From the NCBI GenBank assembly GCA_964346955.1, contig CAYFWT010000013.1, forward strand, positions 1-29,022: DNA of 29,022 bases, in the 5' to 3' direction. Made by a program: the position numbers and the translations under genes. Shown here one piece after another: positions 5,114 to 29,022 of this stretch. The DNA comes from an uncultured Candidatus Saccharibacteria bacterium (GTDB lineage Bacteria; Patescibacteriota; Minisyncoccia; Portnoybacterales; UBA2143). Under the pieces are notes generated by a model. It saw nothing but the letters and a program-made list of their open reading frames with translations. It was not told the DNA's origin and ran no database searches. Numbering within the stretch: position 1 is the stretch's first letter; the number at the start of each line of letters is the position of its first letter.

Positions 5114-6108
5114 TTTTCCTCACTCCTTTCTTTGGCTTCTTGATTCTTTGTCTCTTGATAAGTTCGGACTGCGTTGACTACGATATCAACTAGATTGGTC
5201 ACCACATCCCGAGCCATATCCATCATGACGATTTTGGTTGGGTCGGATTTTGTCGCCTCAATAATCCTGCTCAACTCTACACCTTTATGACGAGCTACCT
5301 CTTTCCTTCTTTTGGTCACTGTTTCGTATTCGGCGGCTGTCCTGACTTCTTCAGGCGGTAAAATCTTTTGGATTTCTATGGCCTCAGCTTTAATGCCCAG
5401 GAAATTCTCGACTTCCTCGTTGAACCTATCTCTCACTTCTCCTCCCATCTTTCGGAGTTGACCCTCAGAAAATTTGGTAAGTTTTTGCTGGGTTTCCTCC
5501 GAACACCTCTGGTTAATGAAAACGGTGGCTGCCTGGTCTTCAAATTCTATTCTGTTGCCATTGACTTTAACCGCAAATAGAGCCGGGTCAGAGACAATCG
5601 TTACGATTCGCCAGTCAATAATAGCTGTTTGATTGTCAGCTGTATTGACGGTAATCGCTTTAGGGTCTCTTGGTTGAGGTGATAAATCGACACAATCAAC
5701 GTCAATGTGAAGAAGATAGGGAAGATACCAATTCCATCCCTCTCTTCTTATTTTGTAGCCAAACCGCCTCCCTTTTTTATCAACCTTATCTATGTTAGAC
5801 CCCCAAGCACTTCTCAAGACCCAAGCATAATTGGCCGGTATATTTCTGACAATCCCGCCGAGAAGCCAATCTTTTCTTTTCTCTTCCTTGACTTCTTCTT
5901 TCTCTCCGGCTTCTTCTCTTTTTTTTGCGGCCATGGCTGCCCCGCCGAATAAAAGAATCAGCAAGAGCAAGGCGACAAATCCAAGGAACAGTTTTGTCCC
6001 AGTGGAGAATTGGATTCGTTGGATAAGAAGATAGCTTCCAAGAACCATGGCCAACATGCCTAAAGTAAACCATCCTTCTCTTTGTAAAAATTCTCTCATT
6101 GCAATCAC
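5110..6108 (-). CDS. SPFH / band-7 (stomatin-prohibitin-flotillin-HflK/C) domain membrane protein
   Basis: Two N-terminal TM segments. The SPFH core has PQPRDPKAITVNTADNQTAIIDWRIVTIVSDPALFAV and IKAEAIEIQKILPPEEVRTAAE, which match the stomatin VxTKDNVxVxVDAVVYYRVxDP and VxRVEIQRIDPPxxVQxAME blocks. SD AAAGGAG lies 8 nt upstream of the ATG. Confidence 0.8.
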   Translation of the reverse strand: MIAMREFLQREGWFTLGMLAMVLGSYLLIQRIQFSTGTKLFLGFVALLLLILLFGGAAMAAKKREEAGEKEEVKEEKRKDWLLGGIVRNIPANYAWVLRSAWGSNIDKVDKKGRRFGYKIRREGWNWYLPYLLHIDVDCVDLSPQPRDPKAITVNTADNQTAIIDWRIVTIVSDPALFAVKVNGNRIEFEDQAATVFINQRCSEETQQKLTKFSEGQLRKMGGEVRDRFNEEVENFLGIKAEAIEIQKILPPEEVRTAAEYETVTKRRKEVARHKGVELSRIIEATKSDPTKIVMMDMARDVVTNLVDIVVNAVRTYQETKNQEAKERSEEK

Positions 6109-6191
6109 TCCTTTCTCTTCAGTAATGAATAGTTATTCTTAAGTTAAAGAACCTATTAAATCCCTCCTTTGGCTAAATTTTATTTTCCCAT

Positions 6192-6348: not shown

Positions 6349-8079
6349 TTATTCAGCGTCTTCAGAAACCCCAGTCTCTACGGGATACAAATCCGGGGAT
6401 TGGTAATTAGAATAAAAGGTTTGTTCTTCAATTAATTCGTCTTTTTGATAGACTTCTTGAGTTAAGACGGTTTTCATCGAGCCGTCTTCTTTTGATTCTA
6501 AAACATAAGGTCCTTTGAGTTTAACCACTCGGCCATCATCAGTGCCATAAAAATTGAAAGTCAAGTAAGTTCCTTCAATGGCTGCCTGAATTAGAAGATG
6601 CCCTGGCGTGTTGTTGATAAAGCGCAAATCAGGATGAGGATCATAGACAGTGGCGTCAAAGCCATGGGGATAATAATATTCAACTGGAAAGGCATGAGGG
6701 GCTCGTTCGGTAATTTTTAAACCAGTATTAACTGCTGCCCGAAAAAAAGTGGTCGAAACTTGACAGAGCCCACCACCATATTCAGGAATAGTTTTCTTTC
6801 TCTTAATAACTAATTCTGGTAAAAACCCTCCTTCTGGGCCACTGTCACCTAAAAAAGTATTAAAAGAAAATTCTTCATCAGGGCTTAAGATTAAGCCATT
6901 AAATTTAGCCGCCCCAGTTTTAATATTATGGATGCGGTTTTTTGGTGAACCAGCAAAATTGGAAGTGCCCTGGCCAATTAAAGTGTTAATACCTAACTCA
7001 TTGGTTTGCTCTAGAGTTATTATCGCCAAGGTTTTTTGGGCAATAATAGTTGTTTTTTTAAGGGGGGGGCTAGCCAGGATATTTTGACTTAATTGAGCAG
7101 CCGTTTGGTTTATTTCTACTTTGATGCCGGCCTTGCCTGGAGAGAAAATAACCGCTCGATTCCCTTCTGTTTGAAGTTGAGCATTGACTAGCTGAGGCCC
7201 CAGGGCAAAAGCTATGTTAGTTAGATATTTTTTAATTTTTTCTTGGCTTAAGAAAAGGCCTAGAATAAAATTATCAGAATTCTCTTCTTTGATTGGCTCA
7301 AACTCTATCCAGTCAACCAAGCGTTTTTTATTAATAATCCAAGCTCTTCCTTCAAAGGTTAATTGAAAGGGTAAATTAGCTAAAATTTGCTGAGTTTTTT
7401 GACGAGCTAATTCAACCTCATTGTTTCTTATTGAGGGATAATCAACCACCAATTTTAAATTAATGGGAGAAAGAGAGAGAGATTGAATTTGCTTTGACAA
7501 CTCAGCTAATAATTGTTCTCTATCTATGGTGATGCCGTTGGTAGAATGAATAAGGATGAAATCATCGGACTCTTGGTCAAAGACTAGAGAAGCATTTTGA
7601 GCTAGCTTTTCAACCTCAGCAAATAGTTCGGCAGTTTTATTTTTAAATTTTTCCTCCTCAATTTTATAAACCGGCTTAAGATTATAGTGGCCAACCAAAG
7701 CAGCTAATTGTTCTTTGAAGCTAGCCAAGATATTTGGCTGTCGGCCAATTTGATAGGCCTGACTAATGGTGGCTTGATAATCAATTTGAAATCCTAAGTC
7801 GGTTAATTTAACTGACCAAGTCACTTCTTTTTCTAAGCTAGGAGAGTCTGGGGGGCCTTGGTAAAGAAGAGTTACTTCTTGATTGGTTAGATGAGCCCAT
7901 TTTTCTTTTAGAATTTCTTGAGAGGCTTGAGGATTATGCCCGCCAATATTAGCATCAGCAATCTTAATTCCCCAAGCAATTTTTTGATTATTGGCGACTT
8001 GGAGAAAGAAAGTTAGATAAACCAAGCTAACCAAAACAGCTAAACTAGCGATGGTTATTTGGCGATAGATTTTCTTCAT
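6349..8079 (-). CDS. VanW family protein
   Basis: N-terminal TM anchor. The C-terminal region GGGLCQVSTTFFRAAVNTGLKITERAPHAFPVEYYYPHGFDATV is characteristic of the VanW domain. Confidence 0.75.
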   Translation of the reverse strand: MKKIYRQITIASLAVLVSLVYLTFFLQVANNQKIAWGIKIADANIGGHNPQASQEILKEKWAHLTNQEVTLLYQGPPDSPSLEKEVTWSVKLTDLGFQIDYQATISQAYQIGRQPNILASFKEQLAALVGHYNLKPVYKIEEEKFKNKTAELFAEVEKLAQNASLVFDQESDDFILIHSTNGITIDREQLLAELSKQIQSLSLSPINLKLVVDYPSIRNNEVELARQKTQQILANLPFQLTFEGRAWIINKKRLVDWIEFEPIKEENSDNFILGLFLSQEKIKKYLTNIAFALGPQLVNAQLQTEGNRAVIFSPGKAGIKVEINQTAAQLSQNILASPPLKKTTIIAQKTLAIITLEQTNELGINTLIGQGTSNFAGSPKNRIHNIKTGAAKFNGLILSPDEEFSFNTFLGDSGPEGGFLPELVIKRKKTIPEYGGGLCQVSTTFFRAAVNTGLKITERAPHAFPVEYYYPHGFDATVYDPHPDLRFINNTPGHLLIQAAIEGTYLTFNFYGTDDGRVVKLKGPYVLESKEDGSMKTVLTQEVYQKDELIEEQTFYSNYQSPDLYPVETGVSEDAE

Positions 8080-9740: not shown

Positions 9741-11834
9741 TTATTCTGGCCAATCCTCAATCATCAGAAATTCCTTTTCCTTGAAAGGTAACTTTAAATA
9801 AATAGCTTCGGTAACAAAAGGCATAAAAGGATGAAGTAATTTTAAAGAATTCAATAAAACATAAGCCAAAACTTGTCTGGTTTGAGAAATATCTTGTTTT
9901 TTAGAAGCTTCAATATATTTGTCACAAAAATCGTGCCAGAAGAAATCATAGATTGAGTGAGCTGCTTGCCCAAAACGAAAATTCTCTAAGTCTTCGGTTG
10001 CTTTTCGAGTGGTTGTTTCCAATTGTTTAAGAATCTTTCTATCGGCTGGAGTGATTTTTGTTTGAAATTTGGAATTTGTAGTTTGTTTGTGATTTGTAAT
10101 TTGTAATTTGTTATTTCCGATTTGTCCTAAGACAAATCGGCTAGCATTCCATATTTTATTAGCAAACTTTTTCCCCATAACTATATTTTCTTCAGAGAAG
10201 CGGATATCCTGATTACCCAGAGCTTGATAAATCAAGCCAAAGCGAGTGGCATCGGCACCGTATTGGTTAACTAAGTCCATGGGGTCACGACCGGTACCTA
10301 AAGATTTACTCATTCGTTTTCCCTCCTTAGTTAAGATAGTAGCATGGATAATTACATCTTTAAAGGGTATTTTTTTAACTAATTCTAGCCCAGAAAAAAT
10401 CATCCGAGCTACCCAGAGATTGATAATATCTCGGGCAGTGACCAAGGTATCAGTGGGATAAAATTTCTTAAGATCACCAGTTGCCTTAGGCCAACCAAAA
10501 GTGGCCAAGGGCCATAAGGCTGAAGAAAACCAGGTGTCTAAAACATCATCAACTCCCTTAATTGGTATTTTATGTCCCCACCAAATTTGCCGAGAAATAC
10601 ACCAATCCTTGATATTATTTAGCCAGTCAAAATATACTTTTTCCCAACGCTTGGGATGAAATTTAATCTGGCCGCTTTTAACAGCTTTAATTGCCTGGGC
10701 GGCTAATTTATCCATTTTAAGAAACCATTGTTGACTAATTAGTGGCTCGATGTCGCTATGGCAGCGGTAGCAATGAGGAATTTGATGAGAATAATCTTCA
10801 GTTTTTTCTAAGAGGCCTTCTTTTTTTAACTCTTCGACGACCTTTTGACGGGCTTCTAAAACAGTTAAACTAGCAAATTTCTGGCCTGCCTGTTTAGTCA
10901 TTCGGCCCTTATCACTAATAACCTGAATCGAAGGCAGATTGTGCCTTGAGCCAATTTCTGCATCAGTTGGCGAATGGGCTGGAGTTACCTTGACTGCTCC
11001 GGTACCAAATTCTGGATCAACTAGTTGGTCAGTTACAATAGGAATTTCCCGATTAACCAAAGGTAAAATAGCTGTTTTTCCAATAAAATCTTTATACCTT
11101 TTGTCCTGTGAATGAACCGCCACCGCCGTATCGCCCAACATCGTTTCTGGTCTAGTGGTAGCTACCACAATATAATTTTTGATTTTTGGGTTTTGACTTT
11201 TGAGTTTGTATTTGATGTACCACAAATGACTCTTTTTCTCTTTGTATTCCAATTCCAAATCAGATAAACTGGTCTGGCATCTAGGGCACCAGTTAATTAC
11301 TTTTTCTCCCTGATAAATCCAACCCTTTTGATAATAATAAAGGAAGGCCGCCTTAACTGCTTCTTGATAGTCTTTATCCATGGTAAAGGCAGTCCGACTC
11401 CAATCGCAAGAGGCACCAAGTTTTTTTAGTTGTTCTAAAATTAAATGGCCATATTTCTTTTGCCAAGCCCAAACTTTTTCTAAGAATTTTTCTTTACCCA
11501 AATCGTAACGAGTCAACCCTTGTTTTTTCAGTTCTTTTTCGACCACGTTTTGAGTAGCAATGCCAGCATGATCAGTCCCCGGCAACCATAAAGTTCGATA
11601 ACCTTGCATCCGCTTTAGCCGGATTAAGATATCTTGGACAAAGGCATTGAGAGCATGACCCATGTGCAATTCGCCAGTAATATTGGGTGGGGGGATAGCA
11701 ATACTGTATTTTTTGGTTTTCTTTTCTCGGCTAATCGGTAGTTTGTCCGGATTAAAATAACCCGACCTTTCCCAGAGTCGGTAAATCCTATCTTCGTTGG
11801 CTTTTGGATTGTAGGTCTTAGGTAATTCTTTCAT
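9741..11834 (-). CDS. valS: Valine--tRNA ligase (short form without the C-terminal coiled-coil)
   Basis: HIGH motif PPPNITGELHMGHA and KMSKS motif KRMSKSLGT. The N-terminus MKELPKTYNPKANEDRIYRLWE aligns to E. coli ValRS MEKTYNPQDIEQPLYEHWE, so the ATG at 11834 is preferred over the track's TTG at 11852. It carries an in-frame repeat-derived segment (see 10061-10140). Confidence 0.9.
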   Translation of the reverse strand: MKELPKTYNPKANEDRIYRLWERSGYFNPDKLPISREKKTKKYSIAIPPPNITGELHMGHALNAFVQDILIRLKRMQGYRTLWLPGTDHAGIATQNVVEKELKKQGLTRYDLGKEKFLEKVWAWQKKYGHLILEQLKKLGASCDWSRTAFTMDKDYQEAVKAAFLYYYQKGWIYQGEKVINWCPRCQTSLSDLELEYKEKKSHLWYIKYKLKSQNPKIKNYIVVATTRPETMLGDTAVAVHSQDKRYKDFIGKTAILPLVNREIPIVTDQLVDPEFGTGAVKVTPAHSPTDAEIGSRHNLPSIQVISDKGRMTKQAGQKFASLTVLEARQKVVEELKKEGLLEKTEDYSHQIPHCYRCHSDIEPLISQQWFLKMDKLAAQAIKAVKSGQIKFHPKRWEKVYFDWLNNIKDWCISRQIWWGHKIPIKGVDDVLDTWFSSALWPLATFGWPKATGDLKKFYPTDTLVTARDIINLWVARMIFSGLELVKKIPFKDVIIHATILTKEGKRMSKSLGTGRDPMDLVNQYGADATRFGLIYQALGNQDIRFSEENIVMGKKFANKIWNASRFVLGQIGNNKLQITNHKQTTNSKFQTKITPADRKILKQLETTTRKATEDLENFRFGQAAHSIYDFFWHDFCDKYIEASKKQDISQTRQVLAYVLLNSLKLLHPFMPFVTEAIYLKLPFKEKEFLMIEDWPE
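10061..10140. repeat. Intragenic low-complexity repeat module plus a perfect 10 bp hairpin, inserted in-frame in valS
   Basis: TTTGAAATTTGGAATTTGTAGTTTGTTTGTGATTTGTAATTTGTAATTTGTTATTTCC is followed by CCGATTTGTC-CTAA-GACAAATCGG. It encodes ...QITNHKQTTNSKFQTKITPADRK... in the variable linker before the ADRxIL motif. It is the same motif family as the intergenic repeats at 21199-21313 and 22548-22640. Confidence 0.6.
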
Positions 11835-11961: not shown

Positions 11962-13089
11962 TTAGGCAACTAATTTTAAATTAGCCTGGGCTTGAATTTG
12001 GGACCAATCTTGTTTTTGACTAGCTTGAGTTCGATAAAAAGCAGTCGTGGCCACCATGGCTGCGTTATCAGTACATAAATTTTTTGGCGGGACTAGAAAA
12101 TTTAATTGACTGCTGACTGCGGAGAGCCGAGAGTTGAATTGTTTTCGCAACTGGTCATTGGCAGCTACCCCACCAGAAAGCATAATGCTTTTAGCTCTAT
12201 AATCTTTAGCTGCTTTAATAGTTTTAGTAATTAAAACATCAATGGCCGCCTGCTGAAAAGAGGCACAGATATCCGGCACTCTTAGGGACAGTCCCTGAGG
12301 GACAGTCCTTAAAGGACGCCTCAAAAGAGATTGTCCCTGTTTTTGCCTTTGTCCTTTTACCAAGTAAAGCACTGCTGTCTTCAGTCCTGAAAAGCTGAAA
12401 TCATAATTATGAGAGTTAATCATTGGTCGGGGTAGATTAAATGACTGGAAGTTGCCTTTTTGAGCTTTTTGGGAAATAATTGGTCCACCAGGATAACCTA
12501 GATTTAATAATTTAGCCACTTTATCAAATGCTTCTCCGGCGGCATCATCTCTGGTCTGGCCAAGTAACTTATACTTACCATGGCCTTTCATTAGAATCAA
12601 TTGAGTATGCCCTCCGCTGACCACCAGGCAGAGAGCTGGAAAAATATTTTTGGAAATTAGAAATTGGGAATTGGAAATTTCGCCAATTGGCTTTAGCCAA
12701 TTGGCGTAGATATGGGCTTCGAGGTGGTTTATGCCTAAAATTGGTTTCCGCCAATTATAAGCCAGGGCCTTGGCAAAATTAACTCCCACTAAAAGAGAAG
12801 GAATCAAACCAGGTCCAGTGGTCACCCCAATTAAATCAATTTTTGGATTTTTTGCTTCCTTAAGAGCAGTCAAAAGACAAGGTTCAATATTCTTTAAATG
12901 AGCCCGGGCAGCTAAATTAGGTACCACTCCACCAAAGGGAGCATGAATTTTTATCTGAGAAGAAACTACATTAGATAAAATCTCACAGCCTTGAGGGCTG
13001 CGGCATTTGACCAGGGCAATGCCTGTATCGTCACAAGATGTCTCAATTCCCAGGATAATCATAGATTTAGTATAACATAAAATATCCAC
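11962..13089 (-). CDS. tsaD: tRNA N6-adenosine threonylcarbamoyltransferase TsaD (Kae1/Gcp family)
   Basis: MIILGIETSCDDTGIAL, VSGGHTQL, DDAAGEAFDKVAKLL, FSFSGLKT and CTDNAAM blocks match E. coli TsaD. The probable true start is the ATG at 13062. It contains two repeat-derived in-frame insertions (12651-12706 and 12285-12340). Confidence 0.9.
   Translation of the reverse strand: MDILCYTKSMIILGIETSCDDTGIALVKCRSPQGCEILSNVVSSQIKIHAPFGGVVPNLAARAHLKNIEPCLLTALKEAKNPKIDLIGVTTGPGLIPSLLVGVNFAKALAYNWRKPILGINHLEAHIYANWLKPIGEISNSQFLISKNIFPALCLVVSGGHTQLILMKGHGKYKLLGQTRDDAAGEAFDKVAKLLNLGYPGGPIISQKAQKGNFQSFNLPRPMINSHNYDFSFSGLKTAVLYLVKGQRQKQGQSLLRRPLRTVPQGLSLRVPDICASFQQAAIDVLITKTIKAAKDYRAKSIMLSGGVAANDQLRKQFNSRLSAVSSQLNFLVPPKNLCTDNAAMVATTAFYRTQASQKQDWSQIQAQANLKLVA
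12285..12340. repeat. Tandem AGGGAC-N-GTCCCT palindromes with extra GGAC/GTCC half-sites, in-frame in tsaD
   Basis: AGGGACAGTCCCT (12285-12297) and AGGGACAGTCCTT (12299-12311), then AAAGGACGCC ... GTCCCTG ... GTCC. It encodes KGQRQKQGQSLLRRPLRTVPQGLSLRVPD, about 17 aa longer than the E. coli TsaD loop after FSGLKT. Confidence 0.6.
12651..12706. repeat. Intragenic low-complexity GGAAATT repeats plus a perfect 11 bp hairpin, in-frame in tsaD
   Basis: GGAAATTAGAAATTGGGAATTGGAAATTT, then CGCCAATTGGC-TTTA-GCCAATTGGCG. It encodes ...YANWLKPIGEISNSQFLISKNIFP..., about 11 aa longer than the E. coli TsaD loop between HHMEGHLLAP and VSGGHTQL. Confidence 0.6.
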
Positions 13090-14074: not shown

Positions 14075-14099
14075 AATAGTTCGACAAGCTCACTATAAA
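14075..14099 (+). repeat. 25 bp exact repeat AATAGTTCGACAAGCTCACTATAAA (copy 1); its inverted partner is at 21271-21295
   Basis: Perfect 25/25 reverse-complement match to 21271-21295. Copy 1 starts 2 bp after tRNA-Glu and ends 6 bp before the GT2 start codon. It contains the internal inverted pentamers ATAGT ... ACTAT. Confidence 0.85.
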
Positions 14100-14105
14100 T
14101 TTTTT

Positions 14106-19006: not shown

Positions 19007-19093
19007 CGGCGAGAGAGGGATTCGAACCCCCGGTACCCTTTCGGATACAGCGGTTTTCAAGACCGCCCCGTTCGTCCACTCCGGCATCTCGCC
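19007..19093 (-). tRNA. tRNA-Ser (anticodon TGA), type II; no encoded CCA
   Basis: Reverse complement: GGCGAGA TG CCGG AGTGGACGAA CGGG G CGGTC TTGAAAA CCGCT GTATCCGAAAGGGTAC CGGGGG TTCGAAT CCCTC TCTCGCC G. Confidence 0.85.
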
Positions 19094-19145
19094 ATGATGT
19101 TATTATTAAATTGTAACCACTACTTTAATATAAAGCCAAGCGCCA

Positions 19146-19170
19146 GTTCGTCCACTCCGGCATCTCGCCA
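19146..19170 (-). repeat. 25 bp exact duplicate of the 5' end of tRNA-Ser(TGA) (tRNA fragment)
   Basis: GTTCGTCCACTCCGGCATCTCGCCA at 19070-19094 (inside the tRNA) is repeated exactly at 19146-19170. Including the flanks, 30 of 31 bp match. The copy is 52 bp upstream of the tRNA 5' end. Confidence 0.85.
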
Positions 19171-19181
19171 GTTTTAAGCTG

Positions 19182-19269
19182 CGGAGGAGGTGGGACTCGA
19201 ACCCACAAACCGCTTTTTACACGGTTACAGTTTAGCAAACTGCTGCCTTACCATTCGGCGCACTCCTCC
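19182..19269 (-). tRNA. tRNA-Ser (anticodon GCT), type II; no encoded CCA
   Basis: Reverse complement: GGAGGAG TG CGC CGAATGGTAA GGC A GCAGT TTGCTAA ACTGT AACCGTGTAAAAAGCGGTT TGTGG GTTCGAGT CCCAC CTCCTCC G. Confidence 0.85.
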
Positions 19270-19309: not shown

Positions 19310-19972
19310 TTACCCTTTCGCCACCACCAGTCCCCAAATCTCTTTTGGCTTGAGTGATTTGAGCGTCTTGGCGCACTCTTTTAAAGTAGCTCCAGTGGTG
19401 GAAATATCATCAACTAAAATGATGGTTTTGTTGAATAGGGATAGTCCTTGCCAAGCAGGGACTGTCCCTATCTCGAAGGCTTTTTTGATATTGGCCTTTC
19501 TTTCTGGAGGGCTTTTAATTTGCACCTGGGGCAAACCATATCTTGTTCGGACTAAGAAATTATTAATTAAAGGAATCCTTAATTCTTGACTGACCACTTT
19601 AGCTAAGAGTTCGGCTTGATTAAACCCCCGCCAACGTAATCGTTTTTTATGCAGAGGCACCGGAATCAAAAAAGTGTCCTTTTTAACTGTCTTTGGCCAA
19701 GTGATCAATTTTTTAATCATCAATTTCCCCAGCGGTTTAGCTAACTCTTTAATAAAATCATATTTGTATCGATGGATAGCTTGTTTAACTAATGGATAGT
19801 CGTAATCACTAGCGGTGATTAGACCAGTAAGAGGAGATTTTTGCCTGAATTTAGTTAGCTGTTCTCTATTTAAGGGGACTTGTTTGAGGCAGGAAAAACA
19901 GATAAATTCTCCCTCTCGATGACAACCAAGGCAATGGATAGGGAAAAATAAGTCAAGGATAAATTTTCGCAT
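19310..19972 (-). CDS. comFC: ComF family protein (ComFC-like phosphoribosyltransferase with N-terminal zinc finger)
   Basis: CLGCHREGEFICFSC zinc-binding motif and PRTase motif IILVDDISTTGATL. Contains an in-frame palindrome pair (19428-19464) encoding GTVPAWQGLSL. Confidence 0.8.
   Translation of the reverse strand: MRKFILDLFFPIHCLGCHREGEFICFSCLKQVPLNREQLTKFRQKSPLTGLITASDYDYPLVKQAIHRYKYDFIKELAKPLGKLMIKKLITWPKTVKKDTFLIPVPLHKKRLRWRGFNQAELLAKVVSQELRIPLINNFLVRTRYGLPQVQIKSPPERKANIKKAFEIGTVPAWQGLSLFNKTIILVDDISTTGATLKECAKTLKSLKPKEIWGLVVAKG
19428..19464. repeat. Pair of AGGGAC-N-GTCCCT-type palindromes inside comFC
   Basis: AGGGATAGTCCTT (19428-19440), then GCCAAGC, then AGGGACTGTCCCT (19452-19464). 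The encoded peptide TVPAWQGLSL parallels TVPQGLSL, which the same repeat encodes in tsaD. Confidence 0.6.
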
Positions 19973-21198: not shown

Positions 21199-21313
21199 AT
21201 TACAAATCCCAAATCACAAATCACAATCCTTCGACTCGGTCGTCTAAAGCGACCTCACTCAGGAAATAATTTTATAGTGAGCTTGTCGAACTATTGTTTG
21301 TAATTTGGAATTT
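21199..21313. repeat. Low-complexity inverted repeat (ATTACAAATCCCAAATCACAAATCACAA ... TTGTTTGTAATTTGGAATT) flanking a 67 bp core
   Basis: The arms lie at 21199-21226 and 21294-21313. The core contains the hairpin GGTCG-TCTAAA-GCGACC (21238-21255) and the 25 bp repeat copy 2 (21271-21295). Confidence 0.6.
21271..21295 (-). repeat. 25 bp exact repeat, inverted copy 2 (TTTATAGTGAGCTTGTCGAACTATT)
   Basis: Perfect reverse complement of 14075-14099. It lies 30 bp upstream of the pilN GTG start. Confidence 0.85.
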
Positions 21314-21324
21314 TATTTATTGAC

Positions 21325-22547: not shown

Positions 22548-22640
22548 GAAATCACAAACCACAAACCACAAATCACAAAACACAAACAGTTTGTAATTTG
22601 GAAATTGGAATTTGTTTGTAATTTGGTGCTTGTGATTTGG
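22548..22640. repeat. About 93 bp imperfect palindrome built from (CAAAYCACAAA)n / (TTTGTAATTTGG)n low-complexity units
   Basis: The left arm GAAATCACAAACCACAAACCACAAATCACAAAACACAAAC is nearly the reverse complement of the right arm GTTTGTAATTTGGAAATTGGAATTTGTTTGTAATTTGGTGCTTGTGATTTGG. Confidence 0.6.
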
Positions 22641-22720
22641 AATTTTATTTTACCGTGGCCTTTAGGCTCCGCTCTAAAGAATCCATACTTTTTCCTCAAG
22701 AAAGGAAACAGCAGAAGCTA

Positions 22721-27989: not shown

Positions 27990-28102
27990 TTATTAAGACT
28001 CCAGAATCAGGGATAGTCTCTTTTCCTAAAAAGGACTTTCTCTGGCAAAGGTCGAAAGTTAAAAAAATAAAATCTATCCACCAATGAAAGGAGGTGAAAA
28101 AG

Positions 28103-28552
28103 ATGCTAGAGTTTTTTAGCCGAAAAAGAGGAGAGAAAGGTTTTACTTTAATTGAGCTTTTGGTAGTTATTGCCATTATTGGAATCTTAGCCACTATTGT
28201 TTTGGTTTCCTTAAATACCGCCAGACAGAAAGCTCGTGATACCCGGCGAATTAGTGACATGAGACAAATCGCTTTGGCTTTAGAGATGTATTTTGATGAC
28301 AATCCTACAACCGGTTATCCGAACGCTCCCTGGGCGACCATGGAAGGTGCCATCGAAGGTGGCGGTTATATGACTTCTGTCCCTGCTGACCCAGGAACAA
28401 ATACTTACGAATATGGCGTGTCTGGCGATAACATGGATTATGTTTTGAATGCCACTTTAGAAGATTCTAATCACACTGCCTTAAATGATGATGTTGATGG
28501 GACTGTTTATGGGGTAGGCTGTGCTGACCCAGAATACTGTATCGAGCCTTAA
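28103..28552 (+). CDS. pilA: Type IV major pilin (PilA-like) with a C-terminal disulfide loop
   Basis: SD AAAGGAGGTG sits 6 nt before the ATG at 28103 (the track start 28094 is an in-frame GTG). Leader [13 protein letters not shown], then [24 protein letters not shown] with E+5. Conserved [24 protein letters not shown] block. C-terminal [10 protein letters not shown]. Confidence 0.8.
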
Positions 28553-28566
28553 TTTAGTTTAACTGG

Positions 28567-28702
28567 ACAGCCTGATAGCCAAGAACCCAGCTCTTTCTAA
28601 GAATTTGTTAGTTTTTCAATTGCTGTTAAATCGGTGCTATTTTCTTGTCTCAATAGAACTAACAAGCTTTTAGAAAGGGCTGGGTTAAGGTTGTCAGGCT
28701 GT
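28567..28702 (+). terminator. Long imperfect inverted repeat (about 47 nt arms, 42 nt loop) after pilA, followed by a U-rich tract
   Basis: The arm ACAGCCTGATAGCCAAGAACCCAGCTCTTTCTAAGAATTTGTTAGTT pairs with the arm AACTAACAAGCTTTTAGAAAGGGCTGGGTTAAGGTTGTCAGGCTGT (perfect segments of 9, 6, 8 and 9 bp), then TTTGTATATTGT. Confidence 0.4.
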
Positions 28703-28720: not shown

Positions 28721-28737
28721 CCAGGGATTGTCCCTGG
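28721..28737. repeat. CCAGGGATTGTCCCTGG palindrome (AGGGAC-N-GTCCCT family) 7 bp upstream of pilD
   Basis: Perfect 7 bp arms CCAGGGA / TCCCTGG. Same core as 12285, 12299, 19428 and 19452. Confidence 0.6.
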
Positions 28738-28743
28738 ATTCCT

Positions 28744-29022
28744 ATGTTCTATATCTTAATTTTTCTCTTCGGCCTCTCTGTTGGCAGTTTTCTCAATGTA
28801 GTTATTTGTCGCTTAGAGACCAAGAAGTTAATTTCATTTAGTCGCTCTCGTTGTCCCCGATGCGGCACTCTTTTGAAATGGTATGATTTAATCCCAGTTT
28901 TAAGTTTTATTTTAACTCGAGGCAACTGCCGCTATTGTGGCCAGAGAATTAGTTGGCAGTACCCTATGGTTGAATTAGCCACGGGGTTGCTATTTCTTTT
29001 AATTTTCCATTACCAATTGGCC
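28744..29022 (+). CDS. pilD: Prepilin peptidase PilD (A24 family), N-terminal part; continues beyond the window
   Basis: MFYILIFLFGLSVGSFLNVVICRL ... SRCPRCGTLLKWYDLIPVLSFILTRGNCRYCGQRISWQYPMVELATG: the GSFLN, CPxC...CxxC zinc-binding and YPxVEL motifs of PilD. It is not in the ORF track because no stop codon falls within the window. Confidence 0.85.
   Translation, partial: MFYILIFLFGLSVGSFLNVVICRLETKKLISFSRSRCPRCGTLLKWYDLIPVLSFILTRGNCRYCGQRISWQYPMVELATGLLFLLIFHYQLA

Follow-up and report, generated by a model that had tools for sequence, protein, structure and literature searches.

Repetitive extragenic palindromic sequences (REPs), REP-associated tyrosine transposases (RAYTs), the repeats of TIRYT genes and REPs located inside open reading frames (ORFs) are all already known. 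TIRYT genes are RAYT-like and are flanked by inverted repeats that share GGGGWSAS (Di Nocera et al. 2013, PMC3733652). Most of them belong to TnpA-REP subclass 2.1, with the consensus GGGG[AT][CG]A[CG], and no REP-like sequences were reported adjoining genes of this subclass (Quentin et al. 2018, PMC6006769). Some TIRYT repeats form repeat families in dimers or clusters (PMC3733652; PMC6006769), and REPs inside ORFs, including those of tRNA synthetases, are on record (PMC3733652). The largest and most widely distributed RAYT clade is regarded in published work as having no clear REP partner. Here we describe a 13-nt palindrome, AGGGACWGTCCCT (AGGGAC-A/T-GTCCCT), that recurs in a 29,022-bp stretch of DNA (contig CAYFWT010000013.1; hereafter the window) from the Patescibacteria, or candidate phyla radiation (CPR). 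We consider it probable, at roughly two chances in three, that the palindrome represents a REP/REPIN-like family (REPINs being inverted REP doublets) that is cognate to a RAYT/TIRYT clade and survives in permissive protein loops of a gene-dense CPR lineage. Three aspects appear to be new: an exact 13-nt self-complementary core common to different phyla, dispersed REPIN-like doublets beside a RAYT clade reported without REP partners, and the mostly intragenic, translated state of the copies in Patescibacteria. Full-text searches of the literature, run with the exact core and with variants of it, found no description of a bacterial repeat containing them, and the core sequence is absent from the Di Nocera supplements.

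The window has a G+C content of 39% and carries genes typical of Patescibacteria, including a gyrA fragment, T4SS-type pilins, LeuRS, TsaD, RecG, ComFC and a type IV pilus cluster. A search of its full length for AGGGACNGTCCCT with at most one mismatch returned four copies, starting at 12284, 12298, 19457 and 28723, against 0.02 ± 0.14 matches in 100 shuffled sequences, none of which reached four. A first-pass annotation of the window had proposed that the palindrome recurs far above chance, and this is borne out. The core has a 6+1+6 architecture and is accompanied by two degenerate partners with two mismatches each, AGAGATTGTCCCT (12326-12338) and AGGGATAGTCCTT (19437-19449); a further two-mismatch match at 28009 is indistinguishable from chance. 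On the plus strand, every variant in the window is a C-to-T change that retains G·T pairing on that strand, a pattern that could equally reflect strand-biased mutation because very few sites are involved.

Two of the three sites in the window lie within genes. The tsaD gene (encoding 366 residues, minus strand, 11962-13062) contains the perfect core AGGGACAGTCCCT at 12284-12296, which is read on the minus strand as GLSL, followed after a single nucleotide, and hence with a 14-nt period, by the one-mismatch core AGGGACAGTCCTT at 12298-12310, read as RTVP. Two decayed 14-nt units extend the array (12311-12338) and end in AGAGATTGTCCCT, read as GQSL; the array as a whole falls within the loop between helices 225-241 and 256-287. 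While the tsaD pair is a direct tandem with A at both centers, the copies in comFC (phosphoribosyltransferase-type, minus strand, 19310-19972) form an inverted A..T doublet between the segments encoding AFEI and NKTIILVDD. Its left arm is AGGGATAGTCCTT (19437-19449, center A, read as GLSL) and its right arm is the perfect core AGGGACTGTCCCT (19457-19469, center T, read as GTVP). Together they make up a REPIN-like hairpin at 19435-19471 of 17 bp with a 3-nt loop, which is continuous on the plus strand by virtue of two G·T pairs (-13.4 kcal/mol as DNA, z = -5.4) but contains two mismatches on the minus strand. The third site is non-coding: the one-mismatch core AGGGATTGTCCCT at 28723-28735 ends 8 nt before the ATG of pilD (prepilin peptidase) at 28744 and forms a 7-bp stem; its extended stem is CCAGGGATTGTCCCTGG. 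Hairpin z-scores are about -3 for both the tsaD array and the pilD copy. The first-pass annotation had found all of these sites, but with small displacements: the tsaD copies lie one nucleotide before the positions it gave (12285 and 12299), the comFC pair is 5-9 nt away from 19428 and 19452 and its first member has two mismatches rather than one, and the gap to pilD is 8 rather than 7 nt.

To place the palindrome in a wider context, we scanned species-representative genomes for pairs of perfect cores no more than 30 nt apart. At least 118 genome stretches from roughly a dozen phyla matched, where about 0.07 would be expected by chance. The hosts among the matches listed include Saccharibacteria and other Patescibacteria, Actinomycetota (Gaiellaceae and others), Coriobacteriia, Sphingomonadales, Burkholderiales, Pseudomonadales, Bacillaceae, Clostridia, Negativicutes, Acidobacteriota, Omnitrophota, Elusimicrobiota and Firestonebacteria. 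In the same set of listed matches, the 13-mer is invariant, 296 of the 306 copies have an A or a T at their center, and neighboring copies are oriented A..T far more often than T..A (71 versus 11). The arms flanking the core are complementary to each other yet differ by lineage and even by copy (GATGATACGA/TCGTATCATC, TTGACAA/TTGTCAA, TTAAC/GTTAA or AAAAAG/CTTTTT), with a complementarity of 50-60% over eight positions among the 296 listed copies. An invariant core combined with varying but complementary arms is the signature of a hairpin substrate. Outside the CPR the flanks are A-rich upstream and T-rich downstream, and the copies are distributed differently with respect to genes. In low-GC genomes from other phyla only 7 of 72 copies fall within long ORFs, although these account for 83% of the DNA, whereas in the CPR 29 of 32 copies lie inside ORFs of at least 150 codons, with all frames used; ORF coverage is equal in the two groups. 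In high-GC genomes this statistic carries no information, since 95% of the sequence there is covered by spurious ORFs. No paired motifs were found in viral contigs, and there is thus no sign of a phage vector.

Some of the motif-bearing loci (labeled L plus a number; P plus a number denotes proteins) show more elaborate arrangements. Eight copies occur within 8 kb of L001. Composite perfect palindromes of about 60 nt are present in L001 (3576-3634 and 4560-4616), L009 (943-996) and L119 (2495-2553), each laid out as core, 2 nt, GATACAGTCCTT, a short spacer, AAGGACTGTATC, 2 nt and core; these composite arms are common to the Saccharibacteria-labeled loci and L119, which was retrieved as a TsaD relative of the window. 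A metagenome-assembled genome of Bacillota carries a tandem array of nine units with a core every 43 nt (L040, 5010-5366), and in Gaiellaceae and other Actinomycetes the core recurs every 40 nt (L029, 3007-3139; L034, 4594-4726; L115, 7839-7971). Neither period is a multiple of three, which marks these arrays as satellite-like and non-coding. In L102 (38% G+C), a single long ORF at 5315-6176 contains seven cores at intervals of about 45 nt, all in the GTVP frame, and may encode a true repeat protein built from the palindrome element.

The core is directly linked to genes for RAYT-like transposases of the Y1 (HUH) type. Searching all ORFs of 200 loci with phmmer and jackhmmer identified Y1_Tnp proteins in L016 and L026 only. 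Abutting doublets bracket the gene in L016, at -87/-73 and at the 3' end, where the ORF ends in SRDSPSGTVPRE; in L026, a doublet precedes the gene by about 200 nt. We then collected homologues by protein search and retrieved their contigs on the basis of the protein alone, which makes these contigs an independent test of the link between core and transposase. In three of them the sole perfect cores in 10-20 kb of sequence are located within 85 nt of the gene ends, at -69/+51 (L201), -72/+10 (L202) and -85,-71/+10,+24 (L205), in each case with center A upstream and center T downstream of the gene. L199, L200 and L206/L207 carry GGGG[AT]C[AT]G[AT]CCCC variants (GGGGTCWGTCCCC or GGGGTCWGACCCC) at equivalent places, and in L203/L204 a gene whose product has a DnaA_C-like helix-turn-helix (HTH) is flanked by GGGGTCAGGCTTGC inverted repeats. 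Altogether, there are nine loci (L016, L026 and L199-L207) at which RAYT-like Y1 genes are directly flanked by the core or by a GGGG[AT]C[AT]G variant. The best NCBIfam match of the flanked proteins is REP_Tyr_transpos, with 66-85 bits relative to a cutoff of 80. The enzymes of L016, L199, L200, L201, L202 and L205 consist of 144-190 residues and contain Y1_Tnp only, while P0212, P0240 and P0235 have a C-terminal DnaA_C-like HTH. At L016 (3680-3724), as well as for P0122 and P0132, the 3' ends of RAYT-like ORFs run into palindromes, so that the proteins end in SRDSPSGTVPRE or RGTVP.

These features place the family close to the TIRYT/TIRtron group, that is, TnpA-REP subclass 2.1. RGGGACAG and GGGGTCAG fit the consensus GGGG[AT][CG]A[CG]; GGGGACAG is found in L121 and L026, GGGGTCAG in L200, L203 and L206, and the form present in the window, AGGGACAG, departs from the consensus at the first base only. 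The two also have in common the DnaA_C-like HTH of some enzymes (P0212) and moderately abundant repeat families in dimers or clusters. They differ in that the published 8-mer lies in longer inverted repeats, whereas the core described here is a self-complementary 13-mer whose first base is usually A, and in that most of the flanked genes are short (144-190 codons) and lack the HTH. The assignment of the flanked enzymes to a subclass is provisional. With the classical REP/REPIN-RAYT systems the family shares short hairpin palindromes, frequent inverted doublets, dispersed copies in the stretches covered and, in other phyla, a grouping of copies around a single RAYT-like gene, as in a REPtron, with REP_Tyr_transpos as the best NCBIfam match. 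In contrast to those systems, the unit is only 13-14 nt long, the conserved part is the hairpin apex, which, unlike the lineage-specific classical REPs, is the same from phylum to phylum, and the copies in the CPR are intragenic rather than extragenic. The REPs inside ORFs described by Di Nocera et al. (2013, PMC3733652) provide a precedent for palindromic repeats within coding sequence.

On this basis we propose that one clade of RAYT-type enzymes (REP-associated, IS200-like, HUH/Y1) has RGGGAC-W-GTCCCY, the invariant core, as its cognate DNA. By analogy with IS200/IS605 and with TnpA-REP of Escherichia coli, such an enzyme would recognize single-stranded DNA hairpins and act on them by HUH Y1 cleavage and joining. 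It would duplicate or relocate the hairpin units, whether single, in abutting 14-nt tandems or in inverted doublets, and was presumably responsible for their spread, either in this genome or in one of its ancestors. In most phyla the surviving copies are intergenic. In the CPR lineage, which has almost no intergenic space, they persist at tolerated places, namely just upstream of pilD and in frame within variable loops of TsaD, ComFC and, in relatives, RecG. If this proposal is correct, it provides a defined and testable DNA substrate for a RAYT clade, in the form of a palindrome whose core is dispersed from Bacillaceae to Actinomycetota to Patescibacteria, and a compact system, consisting of one short enzyme and one 13-nt hairpin, in which to study repeat recognition and dissemination by RAYTs. 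It would also show the fate of REP-type elements in a genome almost devoid of intergenic space, and some of the odd, length-variable loops of CPR proteins (TsaD, ComFC, RecG) would be translated selfish DNA rather than adaptive insertions.

Comparison with close relatives shows that the copies in coding sequence are insertions in variable loops whose identity lies at the level of DNA rather than protein. Aligned with the solved structure of Thermotoga maritima TsaD (6nak_B), the TsaD of the window leaves a 17-residue gap exactly over gqsllrrplrtvpqgls, in agreement with the 17-residue loop noted in the first-pass annotation. This insertion is encoded by the array of about 55 nt that comprises two cores and two decayed 14-nt units, and in the predicted model it is placed between helices with reduced confidence (pLDDT about 62). 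Among 31 close homologues, the loop runs from no insertion at all up to over 40 residues, and many of the loops are short. Several close homologues contain GTVP, GLSL/GQSL or RDSP/KDCP, which correspond to the three reading frames of the palindrome; of the 46 closest TsaD homologues, 11 carry such motif-encoded peptides, while all of the 74 that follow lack them. The TsaD of the window has a single identical protein record (P0001), none having turned up for ComFC in exact-protein look-ups, and the TsaD homologues belong to organisms named Patescibacteria or Parcubacteria. We retrieved 80 loci via TsaD and scanned them for the motif and any RGGGWCWGWCCCY variant. Only the window and its three closest relatives (L119-L121, TsaD 66% identical) were positive, with 0.14-0.54 cores per kb, and neither the motif nor a variant occurred in the other 77 CPR loci (about 700 kb scanned). 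The motif is confined to one CPR sub-clade.

The same pattern recurs in two further proteins. In ComFC, the loop between AFEx and NKTIILVDD contains doublets of an A-center and a T-center copy, with spacers of 7 nt in the window, 9 nt in L119 and 5 nt in L121, while L120 has a decayed copy, AAGGACTGTCTTT, at the same place. In RecG, L119 (5130-5184) and L120 (5823-5877) carry a three-copy cluster encoding TEAQGLSLKDLPQGTVLKGQSLS; the RecG of the window, which is 74% identical, has a shorter, unrelated loop at this position. The RecG cluster is a clean case of presence and absence. At each orthologous loop, the copy number, spacing and frame of the palindrome differ among relatives. Because the copies match the length differences between orthologues of RecG and TsaD, they are insertions and not substitutions in existing sequence. 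No insertion target or target-site duplication is recognizable in the CPR flanks. The suggestion of the first-pass annotation that a small palindromic element can land in permissive protein loops is upheld by the differing alleles, the use of three frames, the lineage restriction and the link to RAYT-like genes; the insertion is restricted to close relatives, and alleles that are free of it or filled otherwise exist.

Several observations weigh against a REP-like family mobilized by a RAYT. An extragenic location and a GTAG or CGTC tag at one end mark classical REPs, and neither applies here: the flanks show only the A-rich/T-rich bias. Neither the window nor the CPR loci examined yielded a Y1_Tnp or RAYT gene, and a search with a profile of the actinobacterial type returned only Actinomycetota-like proteins and no recognizable CPR member among the best 120 hits. 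An active RAYT in this genome is unproven, and the binding and cutting of this hairpin by the RAYT clade is putative, being modeled on related enzymes. Finally, perfect copies are kept at the same ComFC and TsaD loops even though identity between the host proteins is as low as 51-66%. Such a pattern is not accounted for by passive selfish spread and requires ongoing re-insertion, gene conversion or selection. Together with the presence and absence of the RecG cluster, these perfect copies suggest continuing turnover or selection of the palindrome in the CPR.

A bolder version of the RAYT-based proposal, which we put forward only tentatively, holds that a RAYT clade spreading horizontally has AGGGACWGTCCCT as its universal substrate and that this core founds REP-like populations. 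According to this version, lineage-specific arms would have been acquired in each of about a dozen phyla, and in the ultra-compact CPR genomes the core would colonize coding sequence and be kept perfect at the same loops, despite long divergence, by re-insertion, conversion or selection, with variation in the length and sequence of loops of housekeeping proteins as a result. The exact match between the CPR and actinobacterial cores would also be compatible with exchange between CPR episymbionts and their Actinomycetota hosts.

Clearly less probable than a mobile family, but its most serious competitor, is the possibility that the copies in the window have the same family origin but are immobile relics: repeats acquired by an ancestor, with or without a RAYT, that have since undergone only slippage between 14-nt units, gene conversion and decay. 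Since no RAYT was found in any of the CPR DNA examined, the copies could indeed be remnants of a past invasion. Many of them have decayed by transitions (AGGGACAGTCCTT, AGGGATAGTCCTT and, in L120, AAGGACTGTCTTT), and the same loops are occupied in several relatives, as expected for an ancestral insertion. However, neutral relics should have decayed at the diverged ComFC and TsaD loops, where the 13-mers are instead perfect. Nor do relics readily account for a RecG cluster that is present in some genomes and absent in another at 74% protein identity, or for copy numbers, spacings and frames that vary between relatives loop by loop.

We regard it as unlikely that the palindrome is a selected nucleic-acid site, either bound by a dimeric DNA-binding protein or acting as a hairpin, in RNA or DNA, on transcription, translation or the stability of mRNA. 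The conservation of perfect copies at the same loops across diverged genomes would be in line with such a role, as would the 7-bp stem located 8 nt upstream of the pilD start and the flanks in other phyla, whose A-rich upstream and T-rich downstream composition resembles that of bidirectional terminators. Yet most CPR copies lie deep inside ORFs of unrelated genes, which also speaks against the regulator site considered in the first-pass annotation. No Rfam family covers the motif in the window or in the 15 loci checked. Clustering of the neighboring genes of the 118 listed loci yielded only housekeeping families (ABC ATPases, short-chain dehydrogenases/reductases, Mur ligases and ketoacyl synthases), none of which is linked to every copy. 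The arms differ between copies, and the genes with which the palindrome is directly associated are those of transposases. A regulatory or structural role may nevertheless fall to individual copies, for instance that upstream of pilD. Directly upstream of that copy, the gap between a pilin gene (28094-28552) and pilD contains a 30-nt inverted repeat (28584-28613 and 28657-28686) with 87% complementarity and a 43-nt loop.

Still less plausible is an origin by biased point substitution, in which a GGGAC-specific methyltransferase or repair activity generates the palindrome in the manner of HIP1 (GCGATCGC) of cyanobacteria or as part of a restriction-modification system. GGGAC is the recognition site of the type IIS enzyme BsmFI, and the palindrome resembles HIP1 in being short and in exceeding expectation within one lineage, both in coding and in non-coding DNA. 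HIP1, however, arises in existing sequence without insertions and lacks arms, doublets and a link to transposases, whereas the copies described here are extra DNA, present as loop insertions and 14-nt tandems, with an identical core in roughly a dozen phyla and the covarying arms of a hairpin substrate. The half-sites occur in the window at ordinary frequency (GGGAC 23 times, GTCCC 17 times), and the excess is a property of the full palindrome. The window encodes no DNA methyltransferase or restriction enzyme; its single methyltransferase (796-1338) matches generic class I S-adenosylmethionine-dependent methyltransferase families. The restriction-modification site that had been raised as an alternative on the first reading of the sequence is accordingly not supported.

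The same applies to a DNA uptake sequence, which had been suggested because the window encodes type IV pilus and Com proteins (PilM, PilO, PilB, PilT, PilC, pilins, PilD and ComFC) and which we consider very improbable. Known uptake sequences are non-palindromic and occur about once per kb. The Neisseria DNA uptake sequence and the Pasteurellaceae uptake signal sequence do resemble the palindrome in being short, over-represented and also intragenic motifs in genomes with type IV pilus/Com machinery, but they are much denser, restricted to a single lineage and not associated with transposases. The palindrome numbers about five copies in 29 kb (about one per 6 kb), is abundant in many unrelated phyla, where it flanks transposase genes, and is absent from the 77 other CPR loci. 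Protein-level selection for a GTVP/GLSL peptide, which might be suspected from the nearly identical peptides correctly noted at the outset in TsaD (GQSLLRRPLRTVPQGLSLR) and ComFC (EIGTVPAWQGLSLF), is for practical purposes excluded, because the same DNA is translated in three frames into the different peptides GTVP, G(L/Q)SL and RD(C/S)P and also exists as a non-coding copy, and because the loops vary in length and have low structural confidence.

Among described elements that are translated as part of proteins, the Rickettsia palindromic elements (Ogata et al. 2000) come closest to the CPR copies. Both are in-frame selfish palindromes at tolerated surface positions of conserved or essential proteins in a reduced genome, and in-frame loop insertions for which insertion-free orthologues exist, as described for Rickettsia, are found here in TsaD, ComFC and RecG. 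The Rickettsia elements, however, are about 100-150 nt long, are limited to Rickettsia and have no known transposase, whereas the present units measure 13-14 nt (composites up to about 60 nt), occur in many phyla and are linked with a clade of Y1 transposases. PARCELs, an acronym for palindromic amphipathic repeat coding elements, are likewise translated, dyad-symmetric DNA repeats with a patchy distribution among unrelated microbes. We rejected an identity with PARCELs, which are 75-nt units encoding a 25-residue domain in dedicated repeat proteins and not 13-nt inserts in housekeeping genes.

The window contains additional repeats. A second family, composed of tandem heptamers (TTTGGAA/TTTGTAA/ATTGAAA), is found at 1433-1463, 10057-10125, 12650-12679, 21199-21226, 21291-21318 and 22589-22645. 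Four of these sites are intergenic, and the family is also present in frame in LeuRS (NNKLQITNHKQTTNSKFQTK) and in the first TsaD loop (GEISNSQFLISKN). The latter is a 12-residue insertion relative to Thermotoga TsaD with a pLDDT below 50, and homologous TsaDs have SNFQFLISK, SKFQIPNSK or YKLQIPNSK in this loop. A 31-nt sequence, AATAGTTCGACAAGCTCACTATAAATTTTTT, occurs at 14075-14105 and 21265-21295 in inverted orientation with 94% complementarity, and a partial third copy is located at 7622-7652. Each copy is intergenic and near an ORF start, and the sequence may act as a promoter or regulatory element common to these sites. A near-identical 28-nt segment (19067-19094 and 19143-19170, 96%) is shared by two neighboring tRNA genes with lengths of 87-88 nt (19007-19093 and 19182-19269); three more tRNA genes are present in the window.

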